64,000 nucleotides of DNA from an uncultured Prevotella sp. Its GTDB lineage: Bacteria; Bacteroidota; Bacteroidia; Bacteroidales; Bacteroidaceae. The notes under the pieces are model-generated. The model worked only from the letters and a program-made list of their open reading frames with translations, did no database searches and was not told the origin of the DNA. Position numbers and translations under genes: made by a program. Location: positions 5,395 through 69,394 of the forward strand of contig CALMHT010000180.1 in NCBI GenBank assembly GCA_937863835.1, in the 5' to 3' direction. Below are positions 456 through 51,981 of the stretch, piece after piece; the stretch's first letter is position 1; each line of letters begins with the position of its first letter.

Positions 456-587
456 ATGCATGTGGAGCGTAATACAAAATAAAATTCGTTTTTTTTCTCT
501 TATGTCGACGTACAGAATCGTACCGCAAAAAACGATGAAAAACGAACGTTATTTTCTTCTTTTGCTCTAATTCTAAATTATTTTTCA

Positions 588-4808: not shown

Positions 4809-5252
4809 TTATTTCTGAACAGGAATCTTATCTATCCTTCTTTGATGACGTCCGCCTTCAAAGTCGGTAGAAAAATATTCGTCCATGATCTTTTCAGCCA
4901 TAGCATTATCTATAAAACGTCCTGGCATAACGAGTACATTGGCATTGTTGTGCTGACGGATAAGATGAGCTATCTCCGGAATCCAACATAATCCGGCACG
5001 GATAGACTGATGCTTGTTGAGCGTCATACTGATTCCTTCACCACTACCGCATATCGCAATACCGGGATATACTTCGCCGGATTCTATTCCTTCTGCCAGC
5101 GCATGACCGAAGTCGGAATAATCGCAACTGTCGGTGGTGTAAGTGCCGTAATCCTTGTATTCATAGCCATGGGCCTCGCAGTACTGTTTGACATACTGTT
5201 TCAGTTCAAATCCTGCGTGGTCGCTGGCTAATCCTATCGTCTTGATTTCCAT
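4809..5252 (-). CDS. rpiB: Ribose-5-phosphate isomerase B
   Basis: ASDHAG, ICGSGEG, HNNANVL and GGRHQRRI motifs. Confidence 0.96.
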   Translation of the reverse strand: MEIKTIGLASDHAGFELKQYVKQYCEAHGYEYKDYGTYTTDSCDYSDFGHALAEGIESGEVYPGIAICGSGEGISMTLNKHQSIRAGLCWIPEIAHLIRQHNNANVLVMPGRFIDNAMAEKIMDEYFSTDFEGGRHQRRIDKIPVQK

Positions 5253-5253
5253 A

Positions 5254-7272
5254 TTATTCAGCTAGTAGGTCTTTTACCTGCTTGTAAACGTTCTCGGCTG
5301 TGTAACCGAGTTTCTCATCAAGCACTTTGTAAGGTGCAGAGAAACCGAAACTCTCCATGCCGAATACTTTACCGTTGGCTCCTACCAGTCCTTCGAGTGT
5401 TACAGGAAGACCTGCTGTCATACCGAATATCTTGCTTCCTTTCGGCAGGATGCTCTGCTGATATTCTTTGCTCTGACTGCGGAACAGTCCTTCACTCGGT
5501 ACACTGACGATGCGAACCTTGATACCATCCTTGCGGAGCAGTTCTGTACCGGCTACCAGTGTGGCAACTTCTGAACCGTCGGCGAGAAGAATAACGTCAA
5601 ATTTCTCATCGCTGCCTGCTACGATATAAGCTCCCTTGGCTGCCTGCTCGTAATCTGTACCGGCAGGTAGTTTGGTGATGTTCTGACGAGAGAAGATAAG
5701 AGCCGTAGGAGTTTCTGTGTTCTCCATGGCCAGTTTCCAGCATACAGTAGTTTCATCGGCATCTGCCGGGCGGAATACGCGAACGCTGTCTTTGCCTGCA
5801 TGGTTCTTCAGTTTCTCCATCAGACGAATCTGTGCTTCCTGTTCTACCGGTTCGTGGGTTGGTCCGTCTTCACCTACGCGGAATGCGTCGTGTGTCCAGA
5901 TAAACTTGATAGGAACCTGCATCAGGGCTGCCATACGTACGGCTGGTTTCATATAGTCGGAGAATACGAAGAATGTACCACATGCCGGAATGACACCTCC
6001 GTGGAGATACATACCGATACACATACATGCCATCGTCAACTCGCTGACACCTGCCTGGAAGAATGCTCCTGAATAGTCGTCCTTTACAAGAGACTTGGTA
6101 TATTTCAGGAATCCGTCTGTCTTATCACTGTTGGAAAGGTCGGCTGATGCGCAAACCATATTTGGAACCTGCTGTGCAAGTGCACCCAGACATGCTGCTG
6201 ATGCTGCACGTGTAGCAGAGTTTTCTTTCTGTGCCACAACACTCCAGTCTACCTTTGGCGCTTTACCTGAGAACCACTCTTTCAGCTGAGCTGCTTTCTC
6301 GGGATTGGCTTTGGCCCAGGCTGCTTCTACAGCATGACGTTCGGCAACAATCTTTTCGAGTTCTTTTTCGCGGTTGGCATATAATGCTTTTACCTCGTCG
6401 AAGATCTTGAATGGATCTGTTGGGTCGCCGCCCAGATTCTTGATGGTGTTCTGGTATGCTTCGCCTCCCAGAGGTGCACCGTGTGTCTTGATACTGTGCT
6501 CGTAACTGCTTCCGTCTTCTTTCAGAGCGCCTTTTCCCATGACTGTCTTACCGATGATGAGGGTAGGGCGTTCTTTCTCTCCTTGTGCTTTCTTCAAAGC
6601 CTCGCGAATCTGATCTGGATCGTTACCGTTGATTTTCATCACGTTCCATCCCCATGCCTTATATTTGGCCTCTGTGTCTTCGTTCATGACGACACCGCAC
6701 TCTGTAGAGAGCTGGATATCGTTGGAATCGTAGAACATGATGAGGTTGTTCAATCCCAGTGTGCCTGCCAGACGACCTGTACCCTGAGAGATTTCCTCTT
6801 CTATACCACCATCTGATATGTATGCGTAAATCTTATGCTGCATTACTTCCTTGCCAAGACGTGCCTGAAGGAATTTTTCTGCTACGGCTGCACCGGCAGC
6901 AAATGTATGTCCTTGTCCTAAAGGACCGGATGTGTTCTCTATACCACGTGTGAGGTCGCGTTCAGGGTGTCCCGGAGTAGGTGAGCCCCACTGGCGCAAC
7001 TGCTGCAGTTCGTCGAGTGTGAATTTTCCTGCAAGACACAGTACTGAATAAAGCATTGGTGACATGTGACCCGGATCGAGATAGAAACGGTCGCGGCCTT
7101 CCCATTCAGGATTCTTGGGATCGTATACCAAAAATTCAGAGAAAAGTACGTTTACGAAATCTGCTCCACCCATAGCACCACCTGGGTGTCCTGATTTAGC
7201 TTTTTCTACCATCGAAGCAGCTAGAATACGGATGTTGTCCGCTGCTTGGTTCATTAATTTCTTGTCATTCAT
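5254..7272 (-). CDS. tkt: Transketolase
   Basis: KSGHPGG, TPGHPE, GPLGQG, SDGG...E TPP-binding motif and GEDGPTHEPVE. Confidence 0.97.
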   Translation of the reverse strand: MNDKKLMNQAADNIRILAASMVEKAKSGHPGGAMGGADFVNVLFSEFLVYDPKNPEWEGRDRFYLDPGHMSPMLYSVLCLAGKFTLDELQQLRQWGSPTPGHPERDLTRGIENTSGPLGQGHTFAAGAAVAEKFLQARLGKEVMQHKIYAYISDGGIEEEISQGTGRLAGTLGLNNLIMFYDSNDIQLSTECGVVMNEDTEAKYKAWGWNVMKINGNDPDQIREALKKAQGEKERPTLIIGKTVMGKGALKEDGSSYEHSIKTHGAPLGGEAYQNTIKNLGGDPTDPFKIFDEVKALYANREKELEKIVAERHAVEAAWAKANPEKAAQLKEWFSGKAPKVDWSVVAQKENSATRAASAACLGALAQQVPNMVCASADLSNSDKTDGFLKYTKSLVKDDYSGAFFQAGVSELTMACMCIGMYLHGGVIPACGTFFVFSDYMKPAVRMAALMQVPIKFIWTHDAFRVGEDGPTHEPVEQEAQIRLMEKLKNHAGKDSVRVFRPADADETTVCWKLAMENTETPTALIFSRQNITKLPAGTDYEQAAKGAYIVAGSDEKFDVILLADGSEVATLVAGTELLRKDGIKVRIVSVPSEGLFRSQSKEYQQSILPKGSKIFGMTAGLPVTLEGLVGANGKVFGMESFGFSAPYKVLDEKLGYTAENVYKQVKDLLAE

Positions 7273-10609: not shown

Positions 10610-12151
10610 TTAGCGTAATGCTTTATTTAACATGTAGTAAACTTCGTTGAAGCGTAATTCCTTACGGAAGTCTTCATAGTCTGTCTTCTTATTGATGATA
10701 CAGCATTCGATGTCTGCGATCTCAGCATAGTCGCGCCAATATTCGTCTGTCAGATCATAAGAGAAGCAACTGTGGTGTGTACCTCCTGCGTTAATCCAGC
10801 ATCCTACACCAACTTCGAATGTAGGTTCAGGAATCCATAGGTTGGATGCTACCGGCAGTTTAGGTAATGGTTTGCTCTTGATGCAGTTTACATCATTGGC
10901 GATGAGACGGAAACGGTTGCCCATATCTACAACAGTAGCTGCGATACCGTGACCTTGTTTGGATGTGAATACCAAACGGGCTGTCTGACTCTTGCGGATA
11001 CCGATACCTAGGAAGTGAACTTCAAGACGTGGCTTTTCTTCTGCGATGTCTGGGTTGATTTCCAACATGTGTGCTTCAAGGATGGATGTGTTGTCACCGT
11101 CAAAGTTTAAGGTGTAATCTTCCAGGAATGAACTTCCACCAGGAAGCCCCTGTGTCATAAACCATGTGGTTCTGTATAAAGCGGCTGATTTCCAGTCACC
11201 TTCTGCACCGAATCCGTAACCGTCGTGCATCAGACGCTGAGAAGCAAGTCCAGGAATCTGATCGAATCCCTTGCCTGTCTCTTCTACGTTTGCGTCGCCA
11301 AGGTCATCGAAATTGGTTGTGAATGCTTTGGCACCCTTGTCCTTTAACAATGTGCGGAGTGTGATTTCAGCTTTGGCTGAATTCCATATTTTCTTATAAG
11401 CTTCTGTACTCTTGTCTTCGAGTGCTTTGTCGTGTGCATAGTCTTTGAAGTAAACCTGAACGAGATCATCAACTTCTGCGTCCTTTACTTGGTTGAAGTA
11501 AACCATGACTTCGCTGAACGGCATATAATCTACGTGATAACCCATCACTTGTTCAGCAGCTACTTTATCACCGTCTGTAACGGCTACATTGTTCATCTGG
11601 TCGCCGAAACGCAAGATGAGCATATCCTGTGAGTCTGCCCATGCTGCACAAACGCGTGACCATACAGCGATATGATCCTGTGTCTTTGCATCATCCCAAT
11701 ATCCTACAACAGTCTTACGAGGTTTGCGAAGACGAGACAGAATATGACCATATTCGCGGTCTCCGTGAGCACTCTGGTTCAGGTTCATGAAGTCCATATC
11801 CATGGTATCCCAAGGAATCTGTTTGTTATACTGTGTGTGTAGGTGGAGCAGAGGTTTGCGGAGAATCTGCAATCCGTGAATCCACATTTTGGCTGGTGAG
11901 AATGTATGCATCCAAGTAATGACACCAATACATTTCTTATCATTGTTGGCTGCAGACATAATGTCAGCTACTTCATTAGAACTGTTGGCTGTACCTTTAT
12001 ATACAACTTTTATAGGAAGGCGACCAGACTTGTTCAGTCCGTCTACCATTTCTTTTGAGTGTCCGTCTACTTGCACTACTGCGTCACCTCCGTAAAGGAG
12101 CTGTGCTCCTGTTACGAACCATACTTCGAAATTATCAAATGCTTTTACCAT
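10610..12151 (-). CDS. araA: L-arabinose isomerase
   Basis: [51 protein letters not shown] and GGTHH. Confidence 0.97.
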
Positions 12152-13587: not shown

Positions 13588-15333
13588 TTACCAGAAGTAG
13601 TAATAGAATGCTGCGCAAAGTGCTACTACGCCCAGTGTTGCAACAATATCCCAGACATTGAAGCTTTCTTTAATCTGTTTCTTGTAGTCGCCTGTGAATG
13701 TAATTGCCTCAACTTGTTCTTTGCTTGGTGCTGCTGTGAAGAATGATACGACAATCATCAATATGACAATGGCAACAAGTAACCAACACTCGAAGATGAG
13801 CCAGTTGGTCTGCCAGAACCATGCAGTACTACTCCAGAAGGCACCGTTCATAACGGTCTCACCTGAGTTGGTGATTACATTCGTTAATAGTCTTACCATA
13901 CCAATAACGAAACCTCCAATCAGTCCCCATTCACCTGCCTTAGGTGTAATCTTCTTGGAGAAAATACCTAACGTGAATACTGCCACCATGGCTGGGGCAA
14001 GTAACGACTGTATACCCTGCAGATAACTATATAAGTTACCCATATTCATCATAACAGGAAGCCATAGCAAACCGAGAATAACAACAACGACAGTAGCTAC
14101 ACGTCCGACAAGTACATAGTGAGCTTCACTCTTTCCTTGTTTCATTGGTTTGTAGAAGTCTTCTGTGAAGAGGGTCGCACAACTGTTGAAGAACGCGGCA
14201 AGAGATGTAACCAGTGCGCAAACGAAACCAATTGTGACAAATCCCTTTACACCTACAGGAAGAATGTTCTTGACCATCATGGCAAAGGCACCGTCTGTGT
14301 CGTGCTGATTAGTGATATCCATTGTGATTCCACTGTGTGGGTCGCTGGAAAGGGCAATAGCAATCATACCAGGGATAAGGAACATGAATACAGGAAGAAG
14401 TTTGAAATAGCCTGCTGCGATGGTACCACGGCGGGCACGTTTCATAACAGTTGCATTGTCTTCACCGCGTGTCTGTCCAAGTACACGTTGAACAATGTGC
14501 TGGTCTGTACACCAGTACCAGAAACCGATAATCGAAGCTCCAAGGAATACAACAAATCCAGGATACTGATGGTACATAGGATCGCCTTCTTCCCAGTGGA
14601 ACATGTGTGTCGTTCCGTATCCGTTATGAAGTTGTGAACAGTAGTTCATCATATGTGACCATCCTTCTGTTATGCTTCCTTGACCAAGGGCCGAAAGTCC
14701 CAAGAAGAGGACAAGGAACGAGCCTATAATAAGAATAGGTGTCTGTATGGCCGACATCGTCATAACTCCCTTCATTCCTCCGAAGACAGTGAAAATAGCT
14801 GTAATGGCAATAAGTCCTAATGCTCCCCACCAGAATGGCAGACCAAGCAGATATTCAAAGAATATACCTCCAGTAAATGCTGTAACACTTACCTTGGTAA
14901 GGATATATGCAATCAGCGTGATGATACTTAACCAAGAACCTGTCTTCTTTGTGTATCGGTATTTCAGAAAATCAGGCATTGTGATGATTTTACCCATCTT
15001 ATTGTTCAGAAGTTGATAGAACGGAACAAAAATCCAACCTAAAAGCAGAATCATCCATCCTTGCATCTCCCAGTGAGCCATACCGACACCGTCTTTGGCA
15101 CCTGTACCAGCAAGACCGACGAGATGTTCTGAACCGATGTTTGCTGCAAAGATAGCAGCACCGATTATATACCATGGTTCACCTTTACCGAACAAGTAGT
15201 CCTGACTGTCGGCGCCTTTCATTTTTTCTTTGTCTTTTTTCAACGTACGCCAAACATACCAGACAATAAGTACGAAGCCGACTGCTAGAATAGTCCAGTC
15301 GAGCCACACGAATTCATGTGCATTCCAATTCAT
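13588..15333 (-). CDS. araP: Sodium:solute symporter (SSS family), probable L-arabinose transporter
   Basis: AANIGSEHLVGLAG, WYWCTDQHIVQR and many TM helices; operon context. Confidence 0.85.
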   Translation of the reverse strand: MNWNAHEFVWLDWTILAVGFVLIVWYVWRTLKKDKEKMKGADSQDYLFGKGEPWYIIGAAIFAANIGSEHLVGLAGTGAKDGVGMAHWEMQGWMILLLGWIFVPFYQLLNNKMGKIITMPDFLKYRYTKKTGSWLSIITLIAYILTKVSVTAFTGGIFFEYLLGLPFWWGALGLIAITAIFTVFGGMKGVMTMSAIQTPILIIGSFLVLFLGLSALGQGSITEGWSHMMNYCSQLHNGYGTTHMFHWEEGDPMYHQYPGFVVFLGASIIGFWYWCTDQHIVQRVLGQTRGEDNATVMKRARRGTIAAGYFKLLPVFMFLIPGMIAIALSSDPHSGITMDITNQHDTDGAFAMMVKNILPVGVKGFVTIGFVCALVTSLAAFFNSCATLFTEDFYKPMKQGKSEAHYVLVGRVATVVVVILGLLWLPVMMNMGNLYSYLQGIQSLLAPAMVAVFTLGIFSKKITPKAGEWGLIGGFVIGMVRLLTNVITNSGETVMNGAFWSSTAWFWQTNWLIFECWLLVAIVILMIVVSFFTAAPSKEQVEAITFTGDYKKQIKESFNVWDIVATLGVVALCAAFYYYFW

Positions 15334-15363
15334 TTTGTTAATAGTTTTATTTGATTATGATTT

Positions 15364-16554
15364 TTATTTCTTTACGCTGAACTTGTATACCAAATGACTG
15401 TAGTATTTTTCTCCTGGTTTCAAGTATGGATTAGATATTTCCCAACCTTTGGTCTTCGCCGCGTATTTGGTTGGAGAATCAGGATATTTCTGACTTTCGA
15501 AGCATACACTGACATGTTTAGGATATTTGATACCATGCTTGCAACTTATTCCAGTACCCTGAAAGTTTCCTGTATAGACTTGTATTCCAGGTTCGTTGGT
15601 ATAAACCTCAAGCAGTATGCCTGATTTAGGAGAATATAGACTTGCACATACCTGTGTGTCGTCACCTTTACCATTCTTAAATGTATTCAGACACCAGTTG
15701 TGGTCATAACCGGTCGCATTTCTAATTTGATCGAAAGTAGGGTCGTATGCTTCACCGATTACTTTTGGTTCACGGAAGTCCATAGGAGTATTAGCTACAC
15801 TTTTGATTTCTCCTGTTGGAATATAAAATCTGTTACTAGGAGTAAAGTTATCAGCATTGATATACATAACCTGATCAAAACCCTCTTTTGATGGATCACC
15901 GTTTAAGTTGAAGTATGAGTGATTAGTCATGTTGATGACTGTCTCTTTGTCTGTCGTTGCTTTAAATATAATATCAAGTGTGTTGTCGCTTTTCACGGTA
16001 TAGGTGGCTGTAGCCTTTACAGTGCCAGGGAAACCGTTTTCGCCGTCTTTAGCTGTTATTGCAAATACGATCGAAGAATCAGTTTTGGACTTTACATCAT
16101 ATACTTTGTTCAACCAACCTGTATTGCCGCCTCCGTGAAGACAGTTCATTGCATCATTAGCTCTCAACTTGTATTCTTTTCCTGCCACTGTTATTTTGGC
16201 ATCTTTAATTCTATTTGCATAACGGCCTACTGATGAACCGTAATCAGACGGCGTTCTTGCTGTGTCAGTATACTGAGCTATATTATCGTAGCCGAGCACA
16301 ACGTCAGTTGACTTGTGGTTTTTGTCGGGAACAGACAATGATACGACACGTCCACCGTAGTTGGTAAGACATACTTCCATACCATTTTTATTGGCAATGG
16401 TATACAACTGAGTTTTTTTACCACTAATTGTCGACACAAATTTAGCTGGATTCAATCCCGATACAGTTAATTTTGTAGTCTTGCTTCCTGCACATGCAGT
16501 TAATGCTGTTAACGCCATACCTGCGACCAGAAATACGTTCTTCATTGTTTTCAT
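15364..16554 (-). CDS. araM: Aldose 1-epimerase (mutarotase) with lipoprotein signal; arabinose epimerase AraM
   Basis: GRYANRI, LHGG, NMTNHSYFNL, YDHNW and CFESQ; lipobox LTAC at Cys21; first gene of the ara operon. Confidence 0.88.
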   Translation of the reverse strand: MKTMKNVFLVAGMALTALTACAGSKTTKLTVSGLNPAKFVSTISGKKTQLYTIANKNGMEVCLTNYGGRVVSLSVPDKNHKSTDVVLGYDNIAQYTDTARTPSDYGSSVGRYANRIKDAKITVAGKEYKLRANDAMNCLHGGGNTGWLNKVYDVKSKTDSSIVFAITAKDGENGFPGTVKATATYTVKSDNTLDIIFKATTDKETVINMTNHSYFNLNGDPSKEGFDQVMYINADNFTPSNRFYIPTGEIKSVANTPMDFREPKVIGEAYDPTFDQIRNATGYDHNWCLNTFKNGKGDDTQVCASLYSPKSGILLEVYTNEPGIQVYTGNFQGTGISCKHGIKYPKHVSVCFESQKYPDSPTKYAAKTKGWEISNPYLKPGEKYYSHLVYKFSVKK

Positions 16555-48857: not shown

Positions 48858-48935
48858 ATGGAAAATATCAAGAAATTATTTGCACTGATTAGATTGTCAA
48901 GAAACAGTCAGAGATTTTACACAACGCTTCTGTAA
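48858..48935 (+). CDS. Candidate 25-aa small ORF (MENIKKLFALIRLSRNSQRFYTTLL), or a truncated gene remnant
   Basis: ATG preceded by AT-rich TATAATT and an upstream promoter; the stop TAA coincides with the first repeat arm. Confidence 0.35.
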   Translation: MENIKKLFALIRLSRNSQRFYTTLL

Positions 48936-49001
48936 ACACATTACAGCGGTGCGGTAACAATGTTACACAAGGCGTGTAATCTCTTTACAGCGGTGCTGTA
49001 A
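48919..49001. repeat. Array of four 22-bp-periodic palindromic units TTACA-N7-TGTAA separated by 5 nt
   Basis: Units: 48919 ACACAACGCTTCTGTAA, 48941 TTACAGCGGTGCGGTAA, 48963 TTACACAAGGCGTGTAA, 48985 TTACAGCGGTGCTGTAA. Confidence 0.85.
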
Positions 49002-49132: not shown

Positions 49133-49167
49133 GAATCCCGAAAGTTATTGTTTAACTTTCGGGATTC
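49133..49167 (-). terminator. Intrinsic terminator after the QueD-like gene
   Basis: GAATCCCGAAAGTTA-TTGTT-TAACTTTCGGGATTC perfect 15-bp stem, with a U-tract on the - strand. Confidence 0.88.
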
Positions 49168-49184
49168 AAATGATTATATTTCAC

Positions 49185-49751
49185 TTACTTCTTTTTATAT
49201 CCGCATTTCGGACAAACACCATTTTCGTCTAATGCCACACCGCAGAGAGGACATCTGTCGACTGTTCCGCTTGGATTAAATTCAGCCGATGCAATATTCA
49301 CACCGCTCACAAAAGTAATCTTGGCGATTTTCAGTTTGTCTTTCAATAAATCATATACTATCTTAATCATTCCCTCGACAGTCATCGTTTCTTTTGTGAC
49401 CACGAGACGGCAGTCGGGATAAGCAGTGCAGAGTTCTGTCTTGAAAGCCTCGCCTTTCATCTTATTCTGTGGATGACCGTTCTTGATGCCTTGTTTTTCG
49501 TATACATCGAGGATAGCCGGGAGCAGAGGATCGTCCTCGCGGAGAATGAGTGCATGATCAAAATTCTTGATAACGCTCCATGCCACTTTCTGAATCTCAT
49601 TGCATGGATAAACCATATTTACGCCCTTTTCTACAGTGTCTTCTACTTCGATTGTCAATTTACCAGTGTGACCGTGAAGATACTGAGCTTCACCTTGGAA
49701 GCGATAGAAACGGTGTGCGTACTGGATGTCAAATGTTGTGATACTTCTCAT
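49185..49751 (-). CDS. QueD/PTPS-family (T-fold) paralog lacking the catalytic Cys, with a C-terminal CxxC-x9-CxxC metal ribbon
   Basis: Zn ligands H13 (YAHRF) and H26/H28 (LHGH); FDHALIL; TVE pterin-binding Glu; C-terminus CPLCGVALDENGVCPKCGYKK. Confidence 0.8.
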   Translation of the reverse strand: MRSITTFDIQYAHRFYRFQGEAQYLHGHTGKLTIEVEDTVEKGVNMVYPCNEIQKVAWSVIKNFDHALILREDDPLLPAILDVYEKQGIKNGHPQNKMKGEAFKTELCTAYPDCRLVVTKETMTVEGMIKIVYDLLKDKLKIAKITFVSGVNIASAEFNPSGTVDRCPLCGVALDENGVCPKCGYKKK

Positions 49752-49792
49752 AATTGTAATTTTTTATTGATTAATAATCTTGTTTACTGTTG

Positions 49793-49858
49793 CAAAGATA
49801 ATATATTTATTGATAGATTCCAACAGATAAAAGTTATCGTCTCATTGATAAAATCTAT
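49793..49858 (-). promoter_or_regulatory. Promoter of the QueD-like gene: -7 TATCTTTG (49793-49800), -33-like GTTG (49821-49824) and OxyR/LysR-like operator (49823-49858)
   Basis: + strand ACAG-ATAAAAG-TTAT-N6-ATTG-ATAAAAT-CTAT resembles ATAG-N7-CTAT-N7-ATAG-N7-CTAT; a third partial copy lies at 49809-49823. Confidence 0.55.
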
Positions 49859-49890
49859 ATTGCTGCAGTGCTTGCTATATCAAGCATTTC

Positions 49891-50784
49891 TTATTTGTCA
49901 GGTTCAGTAAAAGAAAATATCTTATCGAGAATATCCCTCTTTCGTGTGCATTGTCCGAATTCAGCACCTTTATCTTCATCCGTATCGTTGATTTCGCATA
50001 TACCTATATAGTGAAACAATCGGTTAAATGTTCTATAACCATAGGCATCAACTTCGTAATATAAGAGATCAGGAAATGCTTTGAAATACTTTTCGGCATA
50101 AAAATCCATATTATGCCATTCTTCACCATAATGATGTAGTAACCACAGAGAATACAATCTGCCTATATTTGCTACTTCCTCACCTTCGAACGAATCAAAA
50201 TAGGCTACATTGAAATTCATAAACATAAAATACATCAATGTATGGAATATGGTATTACCATCATTCAGTAATTTTTTTCCTTTAGAAGTCAACGACATCT
50301 TGCCTGTACGAATCTTGATAAAACCGCATGATTTCAGAGCTATGTGCAATACCCGAACCACCTCCACCCTTTGTTCTGTCTTCTGTTTGTAATAATTAGA
50401 ATTCCAATCTTCCAATCCCATTCCGTATAATTCACTGACCAATTTAGGTGGGATATAACCTTGTGGCGTGAGCTTCAGCTCTTTTCCATCCAGCAATCGC
50501 ATAAGATAGAGAGCCTGTTTCATAAATGGAATCTCTTCTATTTCTTCATCCTTCAACGTTTTCAGTTGAATAGGGCACCCTTCTTCAAATGGCCTGTCGA
50601 GAAGATAATGCATTTGAACGGGCGAGAAGCCATGAAACCTTTCTTGTGGCTTAATATTCTGTTCTTCTGTCCTTTTTTGAAGAAACATATTCAAATCGCT
50701 CAAACTCGGTGATTGCCCGTGCTTTACCAGCTCATCAATGTAAGCCTGCAACTGCTTTGTTATTTCTTTAGAGACTTCGTTCAT
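49891..50784 (-). CDS. Hypothetical protein with winged-helix-like motifs
   Basis: 297-aa open frame. KLTPQGYIPPKLVSELY and LKSCGFIKIRTGKMSLTSKGKKLL resemble wHTH recognition-helix/wing segments. Start set at MNEVSKE. Confidence 0.6.
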   Translation of the reverse strand: MNEVSKEITKQLQAYIDELVKHGQSPSLSDLNMFLQKRTEEQNIKPQERFHGFSPVQMHYLLDRPFEEGCPIQLKTLKDEEIEEIPFMKQALYLMRLLDGKELKLTPQGYIPPKLVSELYGMGLEDWNSNYYKQKTEQRVEVVRVLHIALKSCGFIKIRTGKMSLTSKGKKLLNDGNTIFHTLMYFMFMNFNVAYFDSFEGEEVANIGRLYSLWLLHHYGEEWHNMDFYAEKYFKAFPDLLYYEVDAYGYRTFNRLFHYIGICEINDTDEDKGAEFGQCTRKRDILDKIFSFTEPDK

Positions 50785-51054
50785 GTGGCTATTTTTATTA
50801 GTTTTAATTTTCTCATTAATTGCTATTCCATAGTAAATTAAAGACTTGAGAATAGACATCAGGATATGTGATTTTGATTCTGCAAGTCAAATCCAAAGGT
50901 GTTTTCTTACATACATAATATTGCAATATTAAAGATAATGATGCAAATATACTTCTTTTTTGATATAATAACGATATGGTGGCAAAAAAAATTCCCTGCT
51001 TCTCGCTCGATTTTATTTTTTCTTCATATCTTTACCCCCAAAATATATCAGATT

Positions 51055-51981
51055 ATGAGTTTGCAACAATTGGAATACCTCATCGCAGTGGACCGCTTCC
51101 GCCATTTCGGCAAGGCAGCCGACTACTGCAACGTGACTCAACCAACACTGAGCGCCATGATTCAGAAGTTGGAAGAAGAACTAGGCGTGAAACTGCTTGA
51201 CCGCACTGTGCATCCCCTGGAACCCACCAAAATCGGACTATTGGTTCTGGAACAGGCACGGAAGGCATTGTACAGTGCCCGACATATCAAGGATATCGTA
51301 TACGAACAGAAAAACTCGTTCGAAGGTACGTTCAATCTAGGCATCATCCCCACCATTGCCCCGTATCTCATACCCCGTTTTTTCCCCCAACTGGCCAACA
51401 ATCACCCCGAAATGGATATCAGGATTACAGATATGAAGACGGAGGATATTAAGGAGGCTATCCGTACAGGCGATATTGATGCCGGTATCGTGGCAGACCT
51501 GGACGATATGGATAATTTTGAAAAGACGGATTTATACTATGAGGAACTCTTCGTATATGTATCCCCCGAAGACAAACTTATCAGTTATGACAAGATCAAG
51601 GACAAGGATCTGAACGGAGAATTTCTCTGGCTTTTAGGCGAAGGTCACTGCATGAGTCAACAGTTGCAGAAGTTCTGCAATCTCAAGCATGCAGCAAGAA
51701 GTGAACGAGCTTATCGCTTAGGTAGTCTGGAGACTTTTATGCGCATGGTGGAAGGCGGCAGAGGCGTGACCTTCATCCCCGAACTTGCCGTGAAGCAACT
51801 GACTGAAGATAAGCGCAAACTAGTGCGTTCGTTTGCCATCCCAACTCCCACACGACATACCATCATCATCACTCGCAGAAACTTCATCCGTAAGTCTATC
51901 CTTAAGTTGATTACGGAAAGCATTCTGAAATCAATTCCGGCTGATATGATGAAGTTGAAACCGCATCAGCAAAAAGTATAA
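51055..51981 (+). CDS. oxyR: Hydrogen peroxide-inducible genes activator OxyR (LysR family)
   Basis: LQQLEYLIAV..F.HF..AA..C.VTQPTLS HTH; GIIPTIAPYL; redox pair GHC-x8-C (GHCMSQQLQKFC); 308 aa from the ATG at 51055. Confidence 0.93.
   Translation: MSLQQLEYLIAVDRFRHFGKAADYCNVTQPTLSAMIQKLEEELGVKLLDRTVHPLEPTKIGLLVLEQARKALYSARHIKDIVYEQKNSFEGTFNLGIIPTIAPYLIPRFFPQLANNHPEMDIRITDMKTEDIKEAIRTGDIDAGIVADLDDMDNFEKTDLYYEELFVYVSPEDKLISYDKIKDKDLNGEFLWLLGEGHCMSQQLQKFCNLKHAARSERAYRLGSLETFMRMVEGGRGVTFIPELAVKQLTEDKRKLVRSFAIPTPTRHTIIITRRNFIRKSILKLITESILKSIPADMMKLKPHQQKV

Follow-up and report, generated by a model that had tools for sequence, protein, structure and literature searches.

A candidate OxyR operator upstream of a QueD-like T-fold gene in Prevotella, and the peroxide-type regulators that adjoin its orthologs

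OxyR-controlled promoters and the locus described

The survival of obligate gut anaerobes exposed to O2 or H2O2 is understood through a small set of enzymes, namely rubrerythrin, AhpCF, catalase, superoxide dismutase or superoxide reductase (SOD/SOR) and Dps. The gene encoding the sensor OxyR is divergent from a target gene in Escherichia coli (oxyR-oxyS) and in Bacteroides fragilis (oxyR-dps). The classical OxyR consensus is ATAGnTnnnAnCTAT-N7-ATAGnTnnnAnCTAT, and the promoters of Bacteroidetes are of the -33/-7 type. The locus described here lies in a stretch of 64,000 nucleotides (the window) from an uncultured Prevotella sp. (contig CALMHT010000180.1, positions 5,395 to 69,394), whose genome (3.34 Mb) is 99.7% complete. 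It includes oxyR (51055..51981, plus strand), encoding a LysR-type peroxide sensor of 308 amino acids (aa), and a gene (49185..49751, minus strand) encoding a 188-aa protein of the PTPS/QueD fold (T-fold) with a C-terminal CPLCG-x9-CPKCG ribbon. The latter is called QueD-zr, a label coined here for this QueD-like protein with a Cys4 ribbon. The segment 49821-49858, upstream of QueD-zr, is likely to be a true OxyR operator and QueD-zr its target, as judged from sequence comparisons. That the QueD-like protein is an OxyR target had been proposed in a preliminary description of this DNA; the proposal is now supported in silico by synteny, by the conservation of the box and by the uniqueness of the site in the genome.

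The locus resembles the promoters of known OxyR regulons (oxyR-oxyS of E. coli, oxyR-dps of B. fragilis, OxyR-sod of Porphyromonas gingivalis; PMC2430334) by its LysR-type sensor carrying Cys199 and Cys208, by a putative operator of four ATAG/CTAT-like elements (degenerate in the promoter-proximal half) that are spaced by 10 bp and abut the upstream element of the promoter, and by a regulator divergent from its target, one operator being common to both. It differs from them by its target, an uncharacterised T-fold protein and not a peroxidase, a catalase, Dps or SOD. In addition, an insertion separates the pair of the window, and the search of the genome yielded no ahpC, dps or sod.

Sequence and statistical weight of the predicted operator

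The predicted OxyR-type operator (ATAGATTTTATCAAT-GAGACG-ATAACTTTTATCTGTTG; 38 bp, 49821..49858, minus strand) reads ATAG-ATTTTAT-CAAT-GAGACG-ATAA-CTTTTAT-CTGT-TG from 49858 to 49821, i.e. ATAGATTTTATCAAT-N17-CTGTTG. Its promoter-proximal end overlaps the -33 element of the QueD-zr promoter (CTGTTG, 49821..49826, minus strand); the -7 box TATCTTTG (TAnnTTTG type) lies at 49793..49800 on the same strand. On the coding strand, the region upstream of QueD-zr is ...ATAGATTTTATCAATGAGACGATAACTTTTATCTGTTGGAATCTATCAATAAATATATTATCTTTGCAAC...ATG. The two half-site pairs noticed earlier beside the QueD-like gene, which read on the plus strand ACAG-ATAAAAG-TTAT (49823-49837) and ATTG-ATAAAAT-CTAT (49844-49858), are indeed present, abutting and running into the -33 element. 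The spacer described as 6 nucleotides (nt) rather than 7 is correct in the register then chosen, but this value depends on the register: the spacing that is invariant among orthologs is ATAG-N7-C(T/A)AT-N17-CTGTTG, and it is exact in the window. The third partial copy also exists (49809-49821), but it is common only to the closest locus (L014).

With at most one mismatch, the pattern ATAGATN4TCWATN17CTGTTG has a single occurrence in the window, and 100 shuffles yielded none. Two position matrices were trained on foreign sites only, the site of the window being excluded. No OxyR motif could be derived from ahpC, dps or sod of the genome itself (none found), and same-genus sod or ahpC loci beside oxyR were used instead. 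The matrix built from seven other genomes gives 32.0 bits to the site of the window and 14.3 bits to the runner-up in the 3.34-Mb genome; that built from 16 foreign sites gives 32.3 and 12.1 bits, respectively, over 6.67 million positions. The consensus of these 16 sites, ATAGATnnnnTCTATnnnnnnATAGnTnTTnTCTGTT, fits well four elements of the ATAG/CTAT type at one-helical-turn spacing and matches the classical OxyR consensus. The distal half-site of the window, ATAG-N7-CAAT, agrees with the OxyR pattern at seven of eight positions. Taken alone, the core ATAG-N7-CTAT shows no enrichment in the genome (71 copies, mostly intragenic, versus about 85 expected), so that the significance of the site rests on its full architecture and on its conservation. 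Counts of the bare core, uninformative by themselves, were replaced by the matrices from orthologous promoters.

Conservation of the operator among related loci

The QueD-zr family is present in more than 587 genomes, of which the 80 most similar loci were compared. Seven of them have a gene for a full-length OxyR directly divergent from the QueD-zr ortholog, with an intergenic region of 149-411 nt: L014 (Bacteroidaceae), L041 (Alloprevotella), L047 (Phocaeicola plebeius), L055 and L086 (Mediterranea), L026 and L030 (two Bacteroidales). The adjacency of oxyR is therefore not unique to this genome, and all seven adjacent OxyRs keep the C-x8-C pair. The box is found in register in every one of these seven loci, and the same box occurs in about eight more. 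When anchored on CTGTTG, the seven promoters and that of the window align without gaps: CTGTTG is invariant (8/8) and its distance to the -7 box constant, the conserved columns being ATAGAT.tt.TCtAT.....tAT...ttTTtTCTGTTG, then, after about 20 nt, tAtcTTTGc; the remaining intergenic sequence is unrelated.

The approximately eight further QueD-zr loci (L082, L071, L065, L050, L051, L040, L042, L033) carry the box at 67-100 nt before the ATG. They were not used in building the matrix; their second half is better still than that of the window, e.g. ATAGATATAATCTAT-AATCCG-ATAGACATTTTCAGTTT, and oxyR is absent within 4 kb in all of them. One of them, L033 (uncultured Prevotella sp.), has two QueD-zr copies (1922-2482 and 4865-5425) in opposite orientation within 3.5 kb, at least one of which has an OxyR-type box at the usual distance. 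In loci where a Fur gene lies directly upstream of QueD-zr on the same strand, the matrix scan for the OxyR box gave nothing above 5 bits.

The box is also associated with another gene. In same-genus genomes devoid of QueD-zr, it precedes sod where sod is divergent from oxyR (G012, ATAGATTTTTTCAATGAAGTTATAGTTTTTATCTGTTGC...TATCTTTGCA; G018, ATAGATAATGTCTAT...). In P. gingivalis, sod was identified as an OxyR target by electrophoretic mobility shift assay and chromatin immunoprecipitation (PMC2430334). The ahpC-oxyR spacer of the same-genus genome G009 contains no clear box. A near-perfect full OxyR box, ATAGATTTTATCTAT-TTACAT-ATAGATTTTATCTGTT, is found in the same-genus genome G014 (locus L100, contig C45, approximately 520-560, minus strand), about 150 nt upstream of oxyR and facing a gene that runs off the contig start.

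OxyR of the window and the insertion

The LysR-type protein had been described as a true OxyR, and its features agree with this: domains HTH_1 (PF00126, 1.8e-18) and LysR_substrate (PF03466, 6.4e-33), Cys199 and Cys208 (in GEGHCMSQQLQKFC), and OxyR (NF008361) as the best of 52 LysR models in NCBIfam, with 221 bits, i.e. 60 ahead of the next. As also stated earlier, oxyR is divergent from QueD-zr at about 1.3 kb: the ATG of QueD-zr is at 49751 and the start of oxyR at 51055, 1304 nt apart. According to tblastn, this OxyR is 78% identical to that of L014 in the best segment (76% over 317 aa) and 55-60% identical to same-genus OxyRs; the low identity to its own genus fits acquisition of the oxyR/QueD-zr pair as a unit. 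Among 24 same-genus genomes (a small sample), the carriers of Fur-linked QueD-zr (G010, G022) showed no OxyR, no QueD-zr was seen in the genomes with a 55-60% identical OxyR (G002, G006, G009, G012, G014, G018, G023), and OxyR and QueD-zr are combined in the window alone.

Comparison of L014 with the window by blastn gives two blocks only: 49184-49858 (80% identical), which starts at the first base of the box, and 51050-51981 (74% identical), which covers oxyR and resumes 5 nt upstream of its start codon. The genes flanking the unit of L014 map to other contigs of the genome of the window, i.e. the flanks are not syntenic. The two-block homology and the non-syntenic flanks indicate that oxyR, operator and QueD-zr form a compact unit found in differing genomic contexts.

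Between the two blocks lies a 1.19-kb insertion (49859..51049), which contains a hairpin (49867-49888) and, on the minus strand, a hypothetical gene of 297 or 322 aa (49891-50784 or 50859). The view of the preliminary description that this gene is a later insertion is borne out by the abrupt stop of the homology to L014 at the ATAG box and its return at 51050, and by the failure to find the gene in the 24 same-genus relatives. Its product has no match in Pfam, NCBIfam or PHROGs; the sole other match among 40 genomes is weak, partial and from another family. The family of this gene comprises 129 hypothetical proteins, all named members being from Prevotella. No comparable box had been seen beside oxyR in the preliminary description, and none above 12 bits is found there with the 16-site matrix; since no box remains, the autoregulation of oxyR is probably uncoupled. 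On the other side of the unit, just past the terminator of QueD-zr, an array of TTACA-N7-TGTAA-like units (…ctgtaaacacattacagcggtgcggtaacaatgttacacaaggcgtgtaatctctttacagcggtgctgtaattg…) occupies 48900-49000.

Weighing of the operator assignment

Some points speak against the assignment of the box to OxyR. The score of the OxyR of the window (221 bits) is lower than the equivalog cut-off of NF008361 (329), which is a proteobacterial model. The promoter-proximal half-site (ATAA-N7-CTGT) is degenerate and overlaps the -33 element, so that part of the conservation may reflect the promoter and not an operator. OxyR was not seen in two of the five box-bearing genomes checked, which are metagenome-assembled genomes (MAGs) of unestablished completeness. 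Lastly, the census deals with the 80 most similar loci of more than 587 genomes, not with a random sample. The presence of OxyR in 3/5 box-bearing versus 1-2/5 Fur-linked genomes was not used as evidence, the sample being too small and the completeness of the MAGs unestablished.

The overlap with the -33 element, the two MAGs without OxyR and the lack of enrichment of the bare core would also suit a box that represents a conserved element upstream of the promoter or that binds some regulator besides OxyR, the adjacency of oxyR then resulting from hitch-hiking in a mobile block. We regard this as highly improbable: the box also precedes an unrelated gene, sod, where that gene is divergent from oxyR; it resembles the OxyR consensus at four elements one helical turn apart; and it was not found in the loci whose Fur gene lies directly upstream of QueD-zr. 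An OxyR operator is thus the preferred reading, and the Fur-family partners (PerR-like for the Cys-bearing ones) and rubrerythrin beside orthologs elsewhere were counted as further support for it. From this, we infer binding of OxyR, induction by peroxide, and activation rather than repression.

The QueD-zr protein and related T-fold proteins

QueD-zr belongs to the PTPS/QueD family PF01242 (COG0720; E 1e-12; 48.6 bits versus a cut-off of 22.4), and TIGR03367 gives 47 bits, below its cut-off of 89. At the 50%-identity level, the family forms a single full-length cluster, whose members are 83-92% identical to the protein of the window in isolates of Bacteroidota, Bacillota and Spirochaetota and in MAGs assigned to Verrucomicrobiota, Lentisphaeria and Desulfovibrionaceae; third codon positions vary freely among the genes. 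The invariant residues include H13, H26 and H28 (Zn triad), D65-H66, T124/E126, C50 and the four Cys of the ribbon. The protein had been termed Cys-less; this holds for the PTPS catalytic Cys, which is missing, but the protein does contain an invariant C50 and a nearly invariant C114 in addition to the four Cys of the ribbon. The signatures of PTPS subfamilies are CxxxHGH (QueD), CxxxxxHGH (PTPS-II) and ExxHGH (PTPS-III) (PMC5041015). The invariant segment GEAQYLHGH of QueD-zr (Ala at -4, Gln at -3, Gly at -6) matches none of them, and QueD-zr does not look like a canonical QueD.

The AlphaFold2 model of QueD-zr is of moderate quality (pLDDT 66; residues 17-22 and 91-115 below 50) and backs the fold only, not the geometry of the active site or the metal of the ribbon. 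With Foldseek, it matches WS1659 (3jyg), QueD and QueD2, the probability for QueD/PTPS being 1.0. The ribbon weakly resembles the zinc ribbons of Nop10, bL32 and RpoM (E 0.28 or weaker). No match supports a rubredoxin-type ribbon, these weak zinc-ribbon matches being the only ones obtained.

The uncharacterised WS1659 of Wolinella succinogenes (PDB 3jyg) is the best match of QueD-zr in both sequence and fold (E 2.9e-4 and 1.8e-6); it has a similar length and shares the insertion motif DH..I...DDPL(F/L)P. It differs by keeping a Cys before HGH (CRHLHGH) and by having no match to the C-terminal ribbon, and is approximately 18% identical to QueD-zr. QueD2 of Acinetobacter baumannii (PDB 7v0f; Foldseek E 1e-4) is likewise a PTPS-fold paralog longer than QueD and controlled by a stress-responsive metalloregulator: it is a working 6-carboxy-tetrahydropterin synthase regulated by Zur (PMC9894224). 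QueD-zr differs from it by an Ala at the position of the Cys of the PTPS-I (QueD) motif CxxxHGH, by the additional Cys4 ribbon, and by its ties to OxyR, PerR-like regulators and rubrerythrin. Rubrerythrin, with its C-terminal rubredoxin-like Fe(Cys)4 domain, is co-located with QueD-zr, and co-transcribed with it in one locus; each of the two proteins has a short CxxC-x9-12-CxxC knuckle pair at its C-terminus, but the four-helix di-iron fold of rubrerythrin is unrelated to the T-fold.

Pathway and peroxide-defence genes of the genome

QueD-zr is the sole PF01242 member of the genome. An orphan QueC is encoded between pgk and radA (contig C4, 14063-14650, locus L118; 175.6 bits, above the cut-off), and FolE and FolB are present. 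Neither QueE nor a canonical QueD was found in the genome by tblastn with a same-genus QueD-QueE pair, which leaves the preQ0 pathway incomplete. These data bear on the hypothesis that QueD-zr is a stress-proof back-up QueD/PTPS, maintaining the synthesis of queuosine (preQ0) or of folate/pterin when the normal Cys- and Zn-dependent enzyme is oxidised; control by OxyR or PerR would hold, and the function would be ordinary. Its status as the only PF01242 protein of a genome that encodes a QueC, the supply of the usual substrate by FolE, and the retention of the His triad, the DH motif and the ring-binding Glu are in line with such a role, for which QueD2 (PMC9894224; Foldseek match 7v0f) provides the precedent of a spare QueD controlled by a regulator. 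However, the incomplete preQ0 pathway and the presence of FolB, which makes an aldolase bypass unnecessary, render a role as ordinary QueD or as FolB bypass unlikely here. Moreover, the segment before HGH falls outside all three signatures, a canonical QueD coexists with QueD-zr in G010 and G022, and an identity of 83-92% across phyla is unlike that of an ordinary QueD. The back-up hypothesis is accordingly considered unlikely.

Among peroxide-defence proteins, AhpC was not found in the genome, which encodes only two distant peroxiredoxins (approximately 40 bits); nor was Dps/ferritin (PF00210) or SOD found. The genome encodes two rubrerythrins, one of them beside a Fur-like gene on contig C67. 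The coordinates concerned are 6472-6870 (contig C95), 9510-9884 (C24), 10943-11296 (C73) and 14760-15572 (C67). Because AhpC, Dps/ferritin and SOD were not found in these searches, nor any other strong box, QueD-zr is the only evident OxyR target in the genome. The set of classical OxyR targets is unusually small for a genome that keeps oxyR.

Regulators adjoining QueD-zr in other genomes

A peroxide-type sensor or rubrerythrin adjoins QueD-zr in approximately 50 of the 80 loci. About 38 of the 80 have a Fur-family gene upstream (G010, G022, G026 and other loci), nearly always directly upstream and on the same strand; rubrerythrin is a neighbour in eight and OxyR in seven, and no que or fol gene adjoins QueD-zr in any of the 80. 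One of the eight rubrerythrin loci has a Fur gene divergent from a rbr-QueDzr pair whose two members are 29 nt apart. Four Cys-bearing Fur partners were sampled (from Bacillota, Desulfovibrionaceae, Verrucomicrobia and the Bacteroidales rbr locus): their best matches are PerR models, below cut-offs, Zur being far lower or absent. The Cys-less Fur partner common in Prevotella, Bacteroides and Alistipes matches the Irr, Fur and PerR models equally (all approximately 45 bits). In most of the 15 Bacteroidales promoters listed, it is preceded by a 7-1-7 palindrome of the type TGCAAAT-A-ATTTGCA or TGCGAAT-T-ATTTGCA, often in tandem, across its own -33/-7 promoter (L015, L016, L017, L021, L034, L036, L046, L049, L052, L059, L061, L064, L070, L089). 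This palindrome is likely the auto-operator of a Fur subfamily devoid of structural CxxC pairs.

These loci resemble that of the window in that the same ultra-conserved QueD-zr is tied to a peroxide-type sensor within a small mobile unit. They differ by the sensor, which in the window is the LysR-family activator OxyR and has another operator. No Fur-family gene lies directly upstream of QueD-zr in the window, the genome has no Fur partner of that kind, and its best Fur-like match (E 0.071) is on another contig.

The frequency of upstream Fur-family genes, the presence of QueD2 in Zur regulons (PMC9894224) and the equal scores of the Cys-less partner could also point to a zinc-homeostasis paralog comparable to QueD2; in this case, Zur would account for the Fur-family neighbours, and the box of the window would be incidental. 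This seems very unlikely, as the OxyR and rubrerythrin neighbours have no link with zinc, the four Cys-bearing partners resemble PerR most, and an added Cys4 metal site is unexpected in a zinc-sparing paralog.

In four Prevotella-type loci (L054, 2116-3009; L066, 2099-2974; L068; L079), a gene encoding an AraC-type regulator (cupin and HTH, approximately 295 aa) is divergent from rbr-QueDzr. This arrangement may be a third regulatory wiring of QueD-zr. A conserved element (…atttaccatttgttttctgaaattgacgc…) is found upstream of rbr in the AraC-type loci.

Proposed mechanism and significance

In the proposed mechanism, H2O2 would oxidise Cys199 and Cys208 of the neighbouring OxyR, and a tetramer of the oxidised protein, occupying ATAG-N7-CAAT-N6-ATAA-N7-CTGT, would activate QueD-zr through contact with RNA polymerase, the operator being fused to the -33 element of its promoter. 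QueD-zr would be transcribed as a single gene, ending at a predicted intrinsic terminator (49133..49167, minus strand; a 15-bp stem followed by a T run). The 1.19-kb insertion has displaced oxyR from the shared operator without breaking up the operator-promoter-gene unit, and the autoregulatory site of oxyR was probably lost.

QueD-zr probably represents a peroxide-stress gene not described before. No publication on this protein, nor any link between it and peroxide stress, was found in the literature searched, and two oxygen-stress studies, of Treponema denticola and of Prevotella melaninogenica, make no mention of it. In the preliminary description, detoxification or repair of oxidised pterins or purines, or binding of Fe, had been suggested as a possible role. 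As a working guess, QueD-zr would be a metal-dependent enzyme of the T-fold whose substrate, derived from guanine or a pterin, is either required or damaged during peroxide stress. A more specific possibility, put forward tentatively, is an unrecognised peroxide-defence enzyme of anaerobes (a metal-dependent T-fold with a Cys4 ribbon) that would either make a reduced-pterin antioxidant from dihydroneopterin triphosphate or repair or remove an oxidised compound of the guanine or pterin type. Such an enzyme would have been passed on horizontally between gut and rumen anaerobes belonging to many phyla, each lineage having placed it under its local peroxide sensor: OxyR, a PerR-like Fur, or an AraC-type regulator with rubrerythrin.

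As a clean model of the OxyR operator in Bacteroidales, Prevotella included, the comparison of promoters yields ATAGAT-N4-TCTAT-N6-ATAGnT-N3-TCTGTT, joined to the -33 element. Several carriers of QueD-zr can be cultivated, among others Phocaeicola plebeius (OxyR type), Bacteroides xylanisolvens XB1A and Hoylesella loescheii (Cys-less Fur type) and Enterocloster bolteae (PerR type). QueD-zr is a strong candidate, amenable to direct tests, for a component that is still missing from the peroxide response of anaerobes.

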